Shown here: one piece after another, positions 4,687-20,965 of the stretch
Layout: every line of letters begins with the position of its first letter
Numbering within the stretch: position 1 is the first letter of the stretch
Assembly: GCA_048882325.1 (NCBI GenBank)
Contig: JBHLRS010000010.1
Location: forward strand, 1 to 64,000
From: Candidatus Thorarchaeota archaeon
GTDB taxonomy: Archaea > Asgardarchaeota > Thorarchaeia > Thorarchaeales > Thorarchaeaceae
Reading direction: 5' to 3'
DNA length: 64,000 nucleotides
Notes under the pieces: generated by a model
What the model was told of the DNA's origin: nothing
The model's input: only the letters and a program-made list of their open reading frames with translations
Databases searched by the model: none
Position numbers and translations under genes: made by a program

Positions 4687-6540
4687 CTACTTTGGGCGCC
4701 TGTAGCGGCGAATGACCTCCCCCAGAACTATTACAATAACTGCGATTGATGCTCCAAAGGTGGCAGCAAGAAATACGTCCATGAGGTCGTCTGGCTCTGG
4801 ACTTGTTGGTTGCGTGGTCGTAGTGGTTGATGTAGTTGGTTCAGGAGAACGATTAGGTGCAAAGTAGAAGTCGGGGTTGTAGGAGAGGGTGTAGAACTCA
4901 CCTGCATTGTAATCTTCGAAGGTGAAAGGGCCTGAGGTCACATGTGGTTCTACAGGGTCGAACACAGGGTTCCAGGTTTTCCATGCCTCATGCCCTATAC
5001 CAGTGACATCGTTGAAAATGTGTCTAGGGATTATCTTGGTAAATGCAATGTCATAGAAGTGCCAGTATGATTCCGAACTGAATTCAAATATGACTCGATA
5101 TGGTGTTGGTGACCAGACGCCATACAGGTCACTCAACGGCAGAAGAATGGTCGCATTCGCATCAAGCATGTAGTTGTAGGTGAAGGCGACATCCTCTGCT
5201 GTGAGTGGTACACCATTACTCCAAGTGGCATTTCTAATGATGTCAAATATGAAACGAGAATGCCCCTCTGGAATTGATGAATCATCTGCATGTGTTTCAA
5301 ACAGAATGGACTTAGCTAGATCAGGTACTGGCTCATTACCCGGACCATAATCATAGAGAGAGGAGTACAGGTTTTCTAGGACTATGTTTGAATAATCTGA
5401 ATGTGTAACAAAGATATTGAATGAGTCTGGCTCCTGACCGATTGCAATATCAACAGTTCCTCCAAATGAGCCACTCAGTCTTCGTATATTTCTTGTAGTC
5501 CACGGACCTGAGATGCCCTTCGTGAGGTCTCCAACATGTCCCGTAAACTTATCGATACGATATCCTGAGTTGTAAATGTTCTCATAGATGACGATTCTGG
5601 GAACATTAAAGTGTAGAATTCTCTGCATCTCTGCAGCCGCCTCATAGACCTCTCCATAGGTTGTCCCGTGTAAGAATTGGTCACGCCAATAATCGTAGGT
5701 TGCATTCACAAAATTAGTGGGATTCTTTTGATATACATCCACATTTTCTGACCAATATTCATCTGCTAGGAACCGAGCATCATTTCCCTCAAAGATTGCT
5801 CCATAGAATACAATATCATAGTGACCATGATTGTTTAATCTATCAAACATATCCGCGTATTCGACAGCACGTCTCTGTACATTAATGTGAAGTGACTCAC
5901 AAGCCCAGACCATAATTTCTGCCGTTGCACCTGGTAACTCACAGGCAGGTACGTATTCCATTGTGATATTGAAGGGTGAGGCATCTGGTGCCAACCTGAA
6001 TCCAGTTCCAGGATCAATGGTGAATCCCAAATCATCAAGAATCGCATTTCCAATCCATGGCTGTGCAGTGTAGTAATGCCATTCCAACTGGTCTTCGACA
6101 CACCAATCCATGGGATAGGGAACAAGTGAGTCATGTAATTGCGAATAACCATCCATGACTAATTGCATGTGAGCCTCTTTGTCCAATGCATATGCAATTG
6201 CCCTTCTCAGTCCACTGATGTTCAGTGGGTAGTCTCGACAGTTGATTGTATAATGCCCATATCCATTTCTGACAGTGGAAAAATAGTCAAGATCTGGATT
6301 ACTGTCAAATATCGACTGATGAACTGGGTCGAAAAATGAAGAATCAAGATCGATGTCCCCACTCTCGAGTGCAAGCATACGTTGGTCCTGGTTCGAAATC
6401 ACCTTGTAAACAAGACTATCTATATACGGTCCAACTCTCAGTGAGTGTGGGATATCCTCCTGAGCTACAGCAACCAAGCTACTTGTTAATGGAAACAATA
6501 GCGCACTAATCATTAGAAGTGCGAAGATTCTTCTGCTCAC
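4687..6540 (-). CDS. Family-5 ABC substrate-binding protein paralogue 3, circularly permuted
   Basis: Same motifs (LRRAIAYALDK, GGTVDIAIGQEP, ATWSNGVPLTAEDV, VTSGPF); Thr-rich linker, TM helix, RRYRRPK tail. Confidence 0.88.
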   Translation of the reverse strand: MSRRIFALLMISALLFPLTSSLVAVAQEDIPHSLRVGPYIDSLVYKVISNQDQRMLALESGDIDLDSSFFDPVHQSIFDSNPDLDYFSTVRNGYGHYTINCRDYPLNISGLRRAIAYALDKEAHMQLVMDGYSQLHDSLVPYPMDWCVEDQLEWHYYTAQPWIGNAILDDLGFTIDPGTGFRLAPDASPFNITMEYVPACELPGATAEIMVWACESLHINVQRRAVEYADMFDRLNNHGHYDIVFYGAIFEGNDARFLADEYWSENVDVYQKNPTNFVNATYDYWRDQFLHGTTYGEVYEAAAEMQRILHFNVPRIVIYENIYNSGYRIDKFTGHVGDLTKGISGPWTTRNIRRLSGSFGGTVDIAIGQEPDSFNIFVTHSDYSNIVLENLYSSLYDYGPGNEPVPDLAKSILFETHADDSSIPEGHSRFIFDIIRNATWSNGVPLTAEDVAFTYNYMLDANATILLPLSDLYGVWSPTPYRVIFEFSSESYWHFYDIAFTKIIPRHIFNDVTGIGHEAWKTWNPVFDPVEPHVTSGPFTFEDYNAGEFYTLSYNPDFYFAPNRSPEPTTSTTTTTQPTSPEPDDLMDVFLAATFGASIAVIVIVLGEVIRRYRRPK

Positions 6541-6613
6541 CCCTACTCACCCTGCTGGATTATAGGATGACACTACAATTCTGACAGTTTTAATTCTTTG
6601 GACTCTTGATTGT

Positions 6614-7258
6614 TCACAGTTTGACTGCTATGGTACAACCTTCTCCAATTGGAAGGATTGTACTATCGACTTTGTATTCCAGAAGCTCTCTGTTGAATCT
6701 GTCAATTGCTTTCGTTGAATCATTCCACTGTTCTTGAGGTCTTATTGGTGGCCATAAGGTATCATCAACAAGGAAGAGCCCTCCCTTCTTCAAGACTCTG
6801 ATGCAATCAGCGAGCATTACGGGATACCCTCGTTTGGTTGAGTCTTGGAATACGACATCGAATGATTCCGATTCCAACCCTGCCAGGATTTCTATTGCAT
6901 CTCCTACAATAATCTCTATGCTGTCAGACACTCCCTCTCTTTCGAATGCCTTTTTTGCAATGTCAACAATGGATTCATCAATCTCAATTGTAGTGACTTC
7001 ACCTCCAAACTTCTTCGCAGCTAGTGCAAGAGATGTCGTTGAGAAACCAATGCTCATTCCTATCTCCAGAACCCTCTTTGGTCTGGCAAGAGTCAGAAGG
7101 ATGTTGAACAAGCGAGCCATCTCATCCTCAATAGGCGGTCCGAAGCTCTCAAGACCTGTAGCGTTAATGAAATCATCAAGCCTCAGTCTATCGGTGTCCT
7201 TGTAGATGTCATCGATGTAATCCCAGGCTTTCTGACAATCAAATGGAACTTCACTCAT
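6614..7258 (-). CDS. SAM-dependent O-methyltransferase (CCoAOMT/YrrM-like family)
   Basis: RVLEIGMSIGFS, FDVVFQD, LKKGGLFLVDDTLW, LPIGEG. Confidence 0.85.
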   Translation of the reverse strand: MSEVPFDCQKAWDYIDDIYKDTDRLRLDDFINATGLESFGPPIEDEMARLFNILLTLARPKRVLEIGMSIGFSTTSLALAAKKFGGEVTTIEIDESIVDIAKKAFEREGVSDSIEIIVGDAIEILAGLESESFDVVFQDSTKRGYPVMLADCIRVLKKGGLFLVDDTLWPPIRPQEQWNDSTKAIDRFNRELLEYKVDSTILPIGEGCTIAVKL

Positions 7259-17238: not shown

Positions 17239-18108
17239 CTAAAACAAACCATTCTGCATTGCAGTCTGGCAATCACAGCTCGCGTCCTTAGGGATATTTG
17301 CAATCATCTCAAAGGTCAACTTTCTGACCCTCTCAACATTTTCAGACATTGTCTTTAGGACCATTGCATGAGTGACAACTTCGTCAGCGTGCACATCGTA
17401 ATCGGTTGGCATCGAAATGTTCACGAAACAGATTCCTGCCTCACGAGCAAGAGCTGCCTCAGGATATGCAGTCATCCCTATGACTTCCCAACCCTGATTG
17501 TGATAGAACATTGATTCAGCCCTTGTTGAGAATCTTGGTCCATTTATACATACATAGGTGCCTCCATCGTGAACTTTGTACTTCACTTGAGCAGCTGTTT
17601 CTACTGCGACCTTTCGCAGTTCTGGACAGAATGGTTCTGCAAAGGGTAGATGGGCTATTGTCCCCTCTTCGAAAAAGGTGTCTTTGCGAACTCCCATTGT
17701 CCGGTCAAAAAGTTGGTCAGCAATCACAAACTCTCCTAGCTTGACTTTTTTTGGTTGAAGACTGCCAGTGGCCGCGGGACTAATGATTCGTTTCACTCCC
17801 AGAGCCTTCATTCCCCAGATGTTTGCTCTGTAATTGATCATATGCGGAGCAATTGTGTGTCCTCGTCCATGTCTTGCAAGAAATGCAAAACTGCGTCCTT
17901 TAACAGTTCCTAGAATGAAATTATCAGATGTTGCTCCGTAGGGTGTGAACACCTTTACCTCGATTGGATTTTCAATCACATCAGAATCATAATTCCCTGA
18001 GCCACCAAACATACCTATCTCAATAGGAAGAAGTTTCTGTAATGCATCTGCCTGACTCCTGTCAGCGGGGACTACTGATAGTTTTGCTTCAAATGCCATT
18101 TTCTCCAC
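17239..18108 (-). CDS. mtnP: S-methyl-5'-thioadenosine phosphorylase
   Basis: GGSG, TPYG, LARHGRGH, INYRANIW, GPRFSTRAES, GMT.YPE, TDYD. Confidence 0.92.
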   Translation of the reverse strand: MEKMAFEAKLSVVPADRSQADALQKLLPIEIGMFGGSGNYDSDVIENPIEVKVFTPYGATSDNFILGTVKGRSFAFLARHGRGHTIAPHMINYRANIWGMKALGVKRIISPAATGSLQPKKVKLGEFVIADQLFDRTMGVRKDTFFEEGTIAHLPFAEPFCPELRKVAVETAAQVKYKVHDGGTYVCINGPRFSTRAESMFYHNQGWEVIGMTAYPEAALAREAGICFVNISMPTDYDVHADEVVTHAMVLKTMSENVERVRKLTFEMIANIPKDASCDCQTAMQNGLF

Positions 18109-18774
18109 CTATTCCTTCATTCTCCATGCTTTGTCGAGTGGATACTCGATGACATCAAGAAATCCCATGTGCGCTTTGATTTTCGATAGCTGATCGTCAG
18201 AGAGTACAACGTTATTGTATTCACGAAGATGTTTCTTCAACTCCTGAGTACTCATCTCCCTTACCTTCTCTCCCTCGAAGATTTTCTTGATAAGTGCAGA
18301 TATATCCTCATAGAAGTTCCAAGGCCATATTTCCCAAGCCCATGCAATCTCAACTCCAAAATAATCTGGAACAAACTTTGAACCTGCGATGTGCATAAGT
18401 GTGGCACTCTTCACGTCAGCTGCACCTTTCTCTTTTACATGTTCAACAGCCATCGTGAGGCTTTCGCCTGTGTCTGTAATATCATCAATAACCAAGACCT
18501 TCTTTCCGTTAACATCTCCAACAAGGGGACAAGTTAGTTTGGCTTTACCATCCTTTGTTGCAGTCACACCCCAGTGATCCACCTTCACCGAATACAGGTC
18601 CTTGACCCCTAATAGATCACATGCAATCCTGGCATGAACCCATCCGCCTCTAGCAATTCCGACGATAGCATCTGGCCTCCACCCAGACCTCTTCACCTTC
18701 GTTGCTGTTTGATAGGCGTAGTTGTAGATATCATCAAAATCAAGTACATAGCATAATGGACCTTTAAGCTCCAT
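18109..18774 (-). CDS. Purine phosphoribosyltransferase (Gpt/Hpt-like type I PRTase)
   Basis: GIARGG and PRPP loop VLVIDDITDTGESL; PDYF; W..WPW. Confidence 0.88.
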   Translation of the reverse strand: MELKGPLCYVLDFDDIYNYAYQTATKVKRSGWRPDAIVGIARGGWVHARIACDLLGVKDLYSVKVDHWGVTATKDGKAKLTCPLVGDVNGKKVLVIDDITDTGESLTMAVEHVKEKGAADVKSATLMHIAGSKFVPDYFGVEIAWAWEIWPWNFYEDISALIKKIFEGEKVREMSTQELKKHLREYNNVVLSDDQLSKIKAHMGFLDVIEYPLDKAWRMKE

Positions 18775-18861: not shown

Positions 18862-19701
18862 CTAAGAAACCTCAAGTGAGAGAGTATCAAATTTCCCTGG
18901 TTGATAAGTAATTCTGAAGGAGAGGACATGACCCACATCGACATCAATCGGCTCCGTCAATGGGATAAGGAGTGGCTTCCATCCATCCTTCATATTCAGC
19001 GTAATGTCGTCTAATAACTTAGATTCGAACACTCCTACCACTCCGTGTACTACTCCTTTGTCAACAGCTTTGAATTGCAGAGTGTTGTCTATTCTTGTAT
19101 CTCGTTTCAACTTCGTTAAATCGATTGACTCAAGGACCTGCATATCCGCTAGGTCTCTTGTGACTTCACGAGTTGCAGTTTGAACAACTCGTGGGAATTC
19201 GAGGTCATTAAAGCGAAATCGCTCCCAGATATCAGTACACTCCACGGGTACGAGAAAGATTGTGATTTCTTGAGGTAGGATTACACCATCGGATTTCAAA
19301 ATGTGTTCAACTGCATGAGCAGAAGCTGGAATCTGTTGTTCAACCAACATAATAGATGACAGCATTTCACATATCACTACATCTGCTTTGTTGTCCGGGA
19401 CATACTTTTCGAAATGACTCTCGACAAACTCTATAGCGTCGTCTACCTCATTCATCTTTGCAGCTATTCTAGCGTATTGGATTGACTCAGGATTTATGTC
19501 AATGGCTGTAACCTTATCAGCACCAGCCTTTGCAGCGAGTATAGCCAGTACTCCTGAACCAGTCCCTATGTCAACAACGTAATCTCCGTCTTTCACAACT
19601 CTACCAATGGCTCTACTGAATTTCTCAATCCTTGATTTCTGCCCCAGAAGGTTGGCTGCATGCAGCATAGTGAATGGAGTTGCATAATCTCGGTCGGTCA
19701 T
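18862..19701 (-). CDS. SAM-dependent methyltransferase with PRMT-like architecture
   Basis: VVDIGTGSGVLAILAAKAGA, KADVVICE, E-x8-E loop, ILKSDGVILP, C-terminal beta-rich domain. Confidence 0.82.
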   Translation of the reverse strand: MTDRDYATPFTMLHAANLLGQKSRIEKFSRAIGRVVKDGDYVVDIGTGSGVLAILAAKAGADKVTAIDINPESIQYARIAAKMNEVDDAIEFVESHFEKYVPDNKADVVICEMLSSIMLVEQQIPASAHAVEHILKSDGVILPQEITIFLVPVECTDIWERFRFNDLEFPRVVQTATREVTRDLADMQVLESIDLTKLKRDTRIDNTLQFKAVDKGVVHGVVGVFESKLLDDITLNMKDGWKPLLIPLTEPIDVDVGHVLSFRITYQPGKFDTLSLEVS

Positions 19702-19804
19702 CTATTTTTGCCATATCAAATCTTACTTATAATAGAGATGTGAGCGAGCGGTTGCCAAGTTAGTAGAGAGACCCTTGGTTGACAACATATAGGACAGCAT
19801 CACT

Positions 19805-20965
19805 TTGCCCGAAGAGATCATCAGTTCTGCAATGGTAGCTCTTGAGGAAGGCCGCCCTCATGATGCAATTGCTGCACTAGAACCCCTCGTCGAAGAAGAT
19901 GATGAGAATGTCGACGCTTTAGTATGTCTTGGGATGGCTTATGTTCAAGCTGAAATGCCTGAGGAAGCTGTGAGGGTGCTTGAACAAGCTGACAAACTTG
20001 TAGAGCAACACTGTGTCGTTGAGCTATTCTTGGGACGTGCCCTCTGGGCACTCGGGAAGATTGACTATGCAGAAGATAAAATCCGAGAAGCTCATAGGCT
20101 GGACCCGTCTGAGCCTGAAGTCTGGCTGGATCTTTCAAGAATCCTGTACAGGAAAAATGAGTATCGCGAAGCACTCGAGATTCTCCAACAAGCATTGGAG
20201 CGATTTCCAAATGAATTAGAATTGATTGGTCTCTATGCATTGACACTCTATAGATTAGGTGATTTTACTGCCGCAACAACAGAATGGGCTAAGGTTCATC
20301 GCTTGAATCCAGACCTGATGGCTGCAGTTTCGAACTATGCTTATCTCTTACTTATTCAAAACCGTTCTTTCGAAGCTGCACCTTTCGTGGGTCATGCCAA
20401 TATAGTTGATCCGGATGACTATCGTGCACAAATCTTGTTAGGTGAACTGCGATTTCAATCGGGTGAGCATGATGGTGCAAAAGAGTGTTTCAGCAAAGTT
20501 GTTAATCAGGATCCTGCAAACATCGAAGCATTATCACGTCTTGCTGTCCTTGCCCATCTTGCACGTGATACTGAGGGCTGTAATCACTATCTTGAGCGTG
20601 CAGAAGCTGAACTTGGCCGAGACCCAGAGTCCTGGAGAGGACTTTGTGGGGTATATCCACTACTCGGTATGGATGAGAAATACATCGACTGTTTGGTTCA
20701 GTGGACCAAAGCCGATCGTGGTGCTGCGGCACCTTGGGTCGCTCTAGCACACGAGTATGATAAGCTAGGGAGGCTTGAATACGCTCGGAATGCATGGAGG
20801 GTCGTTTTTGAGTTACGTGGATATGTCAAAATTAGGTGCAATGGTTGTAAGAAAGAAGCTAGAATTCCCTATGATGAAACAAAGGGGTTCGATGTCTATC
20901 AAGACTTTTTGTGCGGAGATTGTGGCGCGAAGATTAACATGCCAGCAGGTCTTGCATTGACCTAA
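19805..20965 (+). CDS. TPR protein with C-terminal Zn-ribbon/rubredoxin-like domain
   Basis: Multiple TPRs followed by CNGC...CGDC. Confidence 0.85.
   Translation: MPEEIISSAMVALEEGRPHDAIAALEPLVEEDDENVDALVCLGMAYVQAEMPEEAVRVLEQADKLVEQHCVVELFLGRALWALGKIDYAEDKIREAHRLDPSEPEVWLDLSRILYRKNEYREALEILQQALERFPNELELIGLYALTLYRLGDFTAATTEWAKVHRLNPDLMAAVSNYAYLLLIQNRSFEAAPFVGHANIVDPDDYRAQILLGELRFQSGEHDGAKECFSKVVNQDPANIEALSRLAVLAHLARDTEGCNHYLERAEAELGRDPESWRGLCGVYPLLGMDEKYIDCLVQWTKADRGAAAPWVALAHEYDKLGRLEYARNAWRVVFELRGYVKIRCNGCKKEARIPYDETKGFDVYQDFLCGDCGAKINMPAGLALT

Follow-up and report, generated by a model that had tools for sequence, protein, structure and literature searches.

A compact PRMT-fold methyltransferase of the Thorarchaeia order, encoded head-to-head with a TPR/zinc-ribbon gene

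Arginine methylation is treated as a eukaryotic modification in most reviews. In the protein arginine methyltransferases (PRMTs), the two glutamates of the double-E loop bind the guanidinium group; a literal Thr-His-Trp (THW) loop is the signature of the type I enzymes, its His being missing in PRMT5 too; and PRMT9 carries N-terminal tetratricopeptide repeats (TPRs) ahead of its catalytic module. Aravind et al. (PMC3417536) derived the eukaryotic PRMTs from a bacterial radiation and placed bacterial PRMT-type domains in peptide-antibiotic operons. We analyzed a Thorarchaeota gene, P0001, which lies at positions 18862..19701 on the minus strand of a 64,000-nt stretch of contig JBHLRS010000010.1 (the window) and encodes a PRMT-fold methyltransferase dependent on S-adenosylmethionine (SAM). 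The explanation that we favor, with moderate confidence, is that P0001 is a compact, stand-alone PRMT-type SAM N-methyltransferase that is always paired with a TPR gene and belongs to a branch of the prokaryotic PRMT-fold radiation.

P0001 is an intact open reading frame (ORF) of 279 aa with an ATG start. According to the ORF list and translation, it is the sole long frame at its position, and a search of its genome (G000) finds no second full-length copy. M1 and the N-terminal residues are kept in the alignment of full-length database homologues, and the annotated start is therefore correct. A sequence-only reading of the window had listed the PRMT signature motifs in order; every string that it quoted is in the translation, and 24 orthologues show no variation in the catalytic ones. 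The N-terminal helix (H14...L18-L19...R24; 19630..19662, on the minus strand like all features of the gene) matches the PRMT helix that covers the cofactor/substrate pocket, and in the PDB sequence search its counterpart in Arabidopsis PRMT4.2 and mouse PRMT7 is a helix with the pattern H..ML.D..R. R24 is aligned with the Arg through which PRMTs, going by PRMT1 structures, bind the carboxylate of SAM. Motif I (VVDIGTGSG, residues 42-50; 19552..19578) is the glycine-rich SAM-binding loop of the Rossmann domain and has invariant glycines; it is followed by post-I (VTAID, residues 64-68), motif II (KADVVICE, residues 105-112), the double-E loop and motif III (ILKSDGVILP, residues 134-143). The double-E loop (EMLSSIMLVE; 19339..19368) runs from E112 to E121 with the spacing E-x8-E and is aligned to the double-E loops of PRMT4.2, PRMT7, PRMT3, and PRMT8. 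The C-terminal beta-barrel (residues 145-279; 18865..19269), defined by the Pfam PRMT5_C match, the model strands and structural alignments, contains the strings HGVVGVF (residues 219-225) and DGWKPLLIPL (residues 239-248). D239-G240-W241 (18979..18987) is aligned to the THW of PRMT8; at this position the Trp is kept, and Thr-His is changed to Asp-Gly (DGW), which, as PRMT5 lacks the His too, speaks neither for nor against PRMT membership.

Conservation was assessed in two alignments, one of 20 database homologues and one of the 24 orthologues, which were taken from genomes of 17 genera. The residues invariant in both are P9, F10, L19, R24, G46/G48/G50, D107, E112, and M113 in the N-terminal half, together with E121, Q123, G139, P143, R161, F169, Q174, G220, F225, and D239-G240-W241. 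L18 is nearly invariant among the orthologues. Across 74 distant homologues, G46, G48, and G50 are still invariant and R24 is nearly so. Leu18 and Gln123 of P0001 occupy the product-type positions of PRMT1 (M48 and M155 in PRMT1).

We compared P0001 with proteins of solved structure by sequence, by profile and by model. The best 60 PDB sequence matches (phmmer) are all eukaryotic PRMTs, with E values of 3e-17 to 3e-10, and among them are Arabidopsis PRMT4.2, PRMT7, PRMT3, PRMT5, PRMT9, PRMT1, PRMT6, PRMT8, and CARM1. In this search P0001 is roughly equidistant from PRMT1, 3, 4, 5, 7, and 9 (55-66 bits). The profile of 20 orthologues reaches E = 5e-25 against the PDB and aligns residues 19-269 to PRMT8, with both Glu on the double-E loop and DGW on the THW. 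Among the Pfam families, PRMT5_C (PF17286), not PRMT_C, matches P0001, covering residues 147-265 at 32.6 bits (cut-off 30.3), and generic methyltransferase families match residues 31-146. PF17286 matches only P0001 in the 3.6-Mb genome and is found in 0/14 control prokaryotic genomes. The AlphaFold2 model, built with 74 homologues, has a mean pLDDT of 94.2 and a pTM of 0.89, and its barrel strands lie at pLDDT >93. When the model is searched against the PDB with Foldseek, the top 50 matches are all PRMTs (TM 0.75-0.83). VIA-align superposes it on rat PRMT1 with Z 28.2 and an rmsd of 2.5 A over 268 of the 279 residues, reaching residue 279, and gives equivalent values for PRMT3, PRMT6, PRMT8, CARM1, yeast Hmt1, and T. 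brucei PRMT7. The PRMT-like fold with Rossmann domain, barrel and double-E loop that had been proposed is thus what all four comparisons (PDB, profile, Foldseek, and VIA-align) return, and the structure search that was to separate a PRMT from PrmA came out on the side of the PRMTs. The all-PRMT PDB matches and the model superposition argue for a full PRMT core, not PrmA: P0001 is predicted from sequence and model to be a complete core, Rossmann domain plus beta-barrel, and this fold assignment is firm.

The dimerization arm had been described as short or absent. The arm segment of P0001 (residues 155-187; 19141..19239), located by the HMM alignment to PRMT8 and the model, is indeed short, since two query gaps remove ~13 residues relative to PRMT8. 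It is not absent, however: the model has one short helix (156-160) plus coil in this segment, and R161, F169, and Q174 within it are invariant.

The top-ranked name for P0001 in both Pfam and NCBIfam is PrmA, many orthologues carry the NCBI label "50S ribosomal protein L11 methyltransferase", and JGI labels its homologues "predicted RNA methylase" (>20), "protein arginine N-methyltransferase 1" or "type II protein arginine methyltransferase". If the PrmA and RNA-methylase names among these were right, P0001 would be an L11 methyltransferase (PrmA) or an RNA methylase. P0001 does share with PrmA (TIGR00406, PF06325; PDB 1ufk, 3cjt) the class I Rossmann SAM-binding domain, and it is from this domain that the database name stems, but the domain architecture contradicts the rest. 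TIGR00406 scores 61.5 bits, one third of its curated cut-off of 183.15, and covers only profile positions 154-240 of 296, the Rossmann part. A full-length PrmA match including the N-terminal L11-binding domain is not found; P0001 has ~35 residues of helix before motif I in place of that domain and, unlike PrmA, has the PRMT barrel at its C-terminus (model and VIA-align). PrmA chains are absent from the top 60 PDB matches of P0001 and rank far below PRMTs for one relative, and no RNA-related feature is seen in P0001. We therefore consider an L11 or RNA methylase extremely unlikely. The choice between a PRMT and COG4076, as the sequence-only reading had posed it, proves to be a false one, because JGI gives the same proteins the name "predicted RNA methylase", which we take to be that of COG4076, in some cases and PRMT1 or type II PRMT in others. 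Assigning P0001 to the PRMT fold puts right an annotation error that is widespread.

Among 1.8 billion library representatives, only 8 clusters are close to P0001 (E <1e-30) and >2,000 are found at E <1e-10, many of which match P0001 over its full length at 27-37% identity. The best match among 5.8 billion proteins is just 69% identical. In the ESM Atlas, the structural neighbours of P0001 are led by its own Thorarchaeota cluster, followed by bacterial PrmA + PRMT_C clusters with TM 0.84-0.91 over the whole model. These bacterial clusters come from Acidobacteriota, Actinomycetota, Pseudomonadota, Gemmatimonadota, and Cyanobacteria, some of them are fused to TPR repeats, and a literal THW loop is seen in most of these relatives. 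The earlier reading stated that PRMTs are regarded as eukaryotic; this shared fold and the bacterial radiation described in PMC3417536 show that PRMT-fold enzymes also occur outside eukaryotes. A bacterial-type THW relative, P0286, scores 127 bits to PRMT6 and PRMT1 over its full length, compared to 66 bits for P0001.

We built trees with FastTree and IQ-TREE, both of which comprise prokaryotic representatives only; a search for longer proteins yielded three fused forms and no eukaryotic PRMT. The Thorarchaeota (Thor) proteins form a single clade (support 99), which both trees join to P0130/P0307 (98 in FastTree, 97 in IQ-TREE). IQ-TREE adds beside the Thor clade a non-THW group with the loop E-M-[LI]-x-[ST]..[LI].E.Q, and FastTree does not. 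A PRMT7-specific affinity was considered, as some relatives have a PRMT7/9-like loop (E-[ML]-[LF]-D-T..LI.E); because the two trees disagree on the sister group, no PRMT7-specific conclusion is drawn. The closest non-Thor relative with a source on record is P0307, a PRMT_C-positive protein of 313 aa from an uncultured archaeon (contig CAZKED010000018.1, L061-L065, gene 6001-6942). It is flanked by four radical-SAM genes and a YcaO gene, and its locus looks like an archaeal cluster for peptide modification of the RiPP (ribosomally synthesized and post-translationally modified peptide) type in which the tailoring enzyme has the PRMT fold. Outside the Thor family, the representative nearest to P0001 is P0128 (L069:1059-2792; 29% identity, 2 matched stretches), a 577-aa metagenomic protein with two tandem methyltransferase modules that recall PRMT7 and PRMT9. 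The context look-up shows no telling neighbour genes around P0128 and P0129. Taken with the bacterial relatives, P0001 looks like one divergent branch of a broad prokaryotic PRMT-fold radiation and not like a direct Asgard forerunner of the eukaryotic PRMTs.

The homologues bear the source names Thorarchaeota, Sifarchaeia, and Promethearchaeota, and the first two of these bear out the Asgard host that had been suggested. We determined the distribution of P0001 in a sample of 301 Asgard genomes, in which f1 denotes the family of the window and f2 its sister family in the Thorarchaeia order. Full-length matches (E <1e-96) are present in 71/76 genomes of f1 and in the single genome of f2 (1/1). 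Outside the order, 3/223 Asgard genomes have a barrel-covering relative (E = 1e-24 to 1e-30), and the other matches in these 223 genomes are confined to the Rossmann domain. Nearly all sampled genomes of the Thorarchaeia order thus have the family, and hardly any of the other sampled Asgards do; within the order, P0001 is a core gene that is passed on vertically in single copy.

Some of the matches outside the order were inspected individually. Two of the three barrel-covering relatives were read whole: those of G297 (L032:3256-4509; 417 aa) and G240 (L033:3899-5224; 441 aa) belong to another PRMT-like subtype, which has a SEP-ISN-LLLEG loop with seven residues between the Glu, (S/T)W for THW, and ~130 further aa at the C-terminus that match no Pfam family. 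The Rossmann matches of ~550-610 aa in families f12 and f22 are not PRMT-like, the two examined being methyltransferase-CdhD fusions: G052 (L058:686-2473:-) and G102 (L060:705-2348:-) each join a class I methyltransferase to CdhD (corrinoid/acetyl-CoA synthase delta), and the G052 fusion also has a 4Fe-4S ferredoxin domain. The Methanobacteriota matches L066 and L067 were also set aside as generic membrane-anchored methyltransferases without the barrel.

The distribution bears on whether P0001 is an Asgard eukaryotic-signature protein, that is, a vertical relative of the archaeal ancestor of the eukaryotic PRMTs, in which case the Asgard line would have had arginine methylation before eukaryotes arose. 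The host belongs to the Asgards, the best solved-structure matches are all eukaryotic PRMTs, and the genome encodes an RGG-tailed single-stranded-DNA-binding protein (SSB) and Csl4 that resemble classical PRMT substrates. Nevertheless, we judge such an ancestry very unlikely: apart from the three distant barrel-covering relatives, the 223 sampled Asgards outside the order have no match; P0001 is about equally far from all PRMT paralogues, while P0286 is nearer to them; the nearest relatives in both structure and sequence are prokaryotic; and PMC3417536 takes the PRMTs from bacteria. The eukaryotic ancestry implied by the sequence-only reading is accordingly not borne out by a gene that is restricted to Thorarchaeia among the sampled Asgards and scores roughly half as many bits as P0286.

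The neighbour found most constantly beside P0001 is a TPR/zinc-ribbon gene (19805..20965, plus strand; 386 aa) that is transcribed divergently from the methyltransferase gene across a 103-bp spacer (19702..19804). The TPR protein has TPR Pfam matches and a C-terminal four-Cys ribbon (C345, C348, C370, and C373; nt 20837-20923); all 24 TPR-protein orthologues compared keep the four Cys and P380. The gene starts with TTG at 19805, and conserved N-terminal residues in the orthologues support this start. An AT-rich, TATA-like sequence, TTATAATA, was read in the spacer at 19727-19734, 26-33 nt upstream of the methyltransferase ATG, and may be its promoter element. The head-to-head arrangement of the two genes is kept in 23/23 loci, including that of the sister-family genome G112. 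The C-terminal 100 aa of the TPR protein are found in 67/76 genomes of f1, nearly always in single copy, and in 0/223 sampled genomes outside the order; wherever both positions are listed, every TPR match lies ~1-2 kb from the methyltransferase gene. The two genes therefore have the same phyletic range among the sampled Asgards. Because bacteria have TPR-PRMT_C fusions (P0318, P0330, and atlas clusters) and PRMT9 has its own TPRs, a functional pairing is plausible, and the TPR/zinc-ribbon protein is a candidate adaptor or substrate of the methyltransferase. Complex prediction for the two proteins scores 0.00, which gives no verdict for or against an interaction.

The pocket residues suggest how P0001 may work. 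The N-terminal helix would cover SAM, which R24, the glycine loop and D/E68, an acidic residue after strand 2, would hold in place, and the substrate side chain would enter between the Rossmann and barrel domains. E112 and E121 would fix and polarize the guanidinium so that it can accept the methyl group, and W241 in the DGW loop would form part of the pocket wall. On this analogy with the pocket residues of PRMTs, omega-N methylation of protein or peptide arginine would be the most likely reaction, and we regard it as reasonably probable.

A PRMT fold could also serve another acceptor (lysine, an N-terminal amine or glutamine) or act as a peptide or small-molecule methylase, which we consider less likely, though a serious contender. 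The THW His is lost in P0001, Leu18 and Gln123 replace two Met of the PRMT1 pocket, and the clade that IQ-TREE joins to the Thor proteins lacks THW throughout. P0307, among its radical-SAM and YcaO genes, and the bacterial PRMT-type domains in peptide-antibiotic operons (PMC3417536) point in the same direction. Set against these are the two double-E Glu, both invariant, and the setting of the gene: it lies among housekeeping genes with no biosynthetic cluster nearby, and an entire order keeps it as a core gene in single copy, as genes of secondary metabolism seldom are.

Several observations weigh against the explanation that we favor, a compact PRMT-type N-methyltransferase paired with a TPR gene. 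The substitutions DGW, Leu18, and Gln123 make the pocket unlike that of any characterized PRMT, so the acceptor could differ, and the peptide-modification cluster around P0307 fits a peptide methylase equally well. Our literature searches turned up no biochemical study of an archaeal PRMT-type enzyme. The adjacency of the TPR gene is in part inherited gene order, since an 8-kb block is syntenic across the family. Finally, that P0001 is not an ancestor of the eukaryotic enzymes is based on distribution, relative bit scores and PMC3417536, not on a rooted tree.

Two proteins of the genome have tails of the kind that PRMTs classically modify. An SSB-like protein (Pfam Ssb-like_OB, an oligonucleotide-binding fold; G000 C11:6120-6620, L036:1007-1504:+) has an RGG/GAR (arginine/glycine-rich) C-terminal tail that is eukaryote-like. 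It has paralogues at C45:23811-24991, and the family is multi-copy, with 5 matches in G000 and up to 9 in other Thorarchaeia; in Asgard family f12 it is multi-copy as well. A Csl4-like exosome subunit (ECR1_N plus a Cys-rich ribbon; C9:14915-15697 on the minus strand, L037:1004-1750:-) ends in an Arg/Gly-rich tail of ~40 residues, which to our knowledge is not usual for an archaeal Csl4. Guided by its TPR partner, the methyltransferase might methylate the RGG/GAR-like tails of nucleic-acid-binding proteins such as the SSB paralogues and Csl4, giving Thorarchaeia an arginine-methylation system in the eukaryotic style, and RGG methylation would then be either an archaeal or a parallel invention; we think this rather improbable. 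Co-occurrence of the tails with the enzyme was rejected as support, because the SSB tails of family f12, in which the Thor-type enzyme is not found, are just as rich in RGG, so there is no phyletic support for RGG substrates. Tudor/SMN reader domains were not found in the genome, a result for which the control genomes are uninformative.

Downstream of P0001 on the minus strand lie a phosphoribosyltransferase (PRTase) gene (18109-18774; Pribosyltran family match) and an abutting gene for S-methyl-5'-thioadenosine phosphorylase (MTAP; 17239-18108; PNP_UDP_1/MTAP family match). The sequence-only reading had linked P0001 to this PRTase and MTAP (mtnP) as enzymes that handle SAM by-products. The link is weak, because MTAP acts on methylthioadenosine whereas methyl transfer yields S-adenosylhomocysteine. 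An operon of the methyltransferase with PRTase and MTAP was also rejected: the spacer between the methyltransferase and PRTase genes varies from 70 to 780 bp between genera, both PRTase and MTAP are absent beside the orthologue in G112, and the PRTase gene has its own TATA-like element, TTTTTATCATA, 37-48 nt before its ATG within the 87-bp spacer. PRTase-MTAP is probably an adenine-salvage unit of its own that is merely syntenic with the methyltransferase. Methylthioadenosine is a selective inhibitor of PRMT5, which makes the adjacency of MTAP a curiosity.

The surrounding block recurs in 16 further genera of the family. The nitrilase-like, MTAP, PRTase, and methyltransferase genes share one strand with a RecJ-like gene at the far end of the block, and between them the TPR/zinc-ribbon, Nudix, and membrane protein genes occupy the opposite strand. 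Not every fetched stretch shows MTAP and the nitrilase-like gene, and in G112 the methyltransferase, TPR, and Nudix genes alone remain together. In loci from other genomes of the same genus, the methyltransferase is 53-68% identical to the copy in G000, the TPR protein 67-84%, the PRTase 82-92%, and MTAP 85-92%, showing that the methyltransferase and TPR genes have a higher rate of divergence than the genes around them. Within the block (loci L004-L015) divergence is fastest in the methyltransferase, although its catalytic motifs stay invariant.

P0001 offers a minimal PRMT for structural and mechanistic work, as it is small, probably soluble and conserved in one Asgard order, and it offers a way to ask whether archaea methylate arginine. 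Its distribution and similarities temper the eukaryotic-signature reading and point to the known prokaryotic PRMT-fold radiation.

Compared to the eukaryotic PRMTs (PRMT1/3/6/8, CARM1, PRMT7, and PRMT5; PDB 1or8, 4ryl, 5fqo, 6izq, 4m38, and 4gqb), P0001 has the same two-domain core (Z ~28, 265-278 residues aligned), including the N-terminal helix Arg, motifs I, post-I, II, and III, the E-x8-E loop, and the THW-loop Trp. It differs from them in its archaeal host and in having just 279 aa, without N-terminal extensions or accessory domains, as well as in its DGW loop and its shorter arm; identity to them is 17-23%, with no specific affinity to one paralogue. The PRMT core also occurs, stand-alone or fused, in the bacterial PRMT-type methylases (PrmA + PRMT_C, PF22528; PMC3417536), which share its fold at the TM values given above, are likewise mislabelled as L11 methyltransferases and are in some cases fused to TPRs. 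In most of these bacterial proteins, THW is retained along with a loop of the SE(T/L)(L/I)G type, and they are closer to the eukaryotic type I PRMTs than the Thor protein is. The Thor gene belongs to no biosynthetic operon and stands among housekeeping genes. A PRMT core accompanied by TPRs is shared with PRMT9 (PDB 6pdm, 7rbq, and 8rbk) and with the bacterial fusions P0318 and P0330, in which the TPRs are N-terminal. Unlike in these proteins, the Thor TPR protein is encoded by a separate, divergently transcribed gene and has its own zinc ribbon; because the fused bacterial forms fall elsewhere in the tree, the TPR association of the Thorarchaeia enzyme looks independent of theirs.

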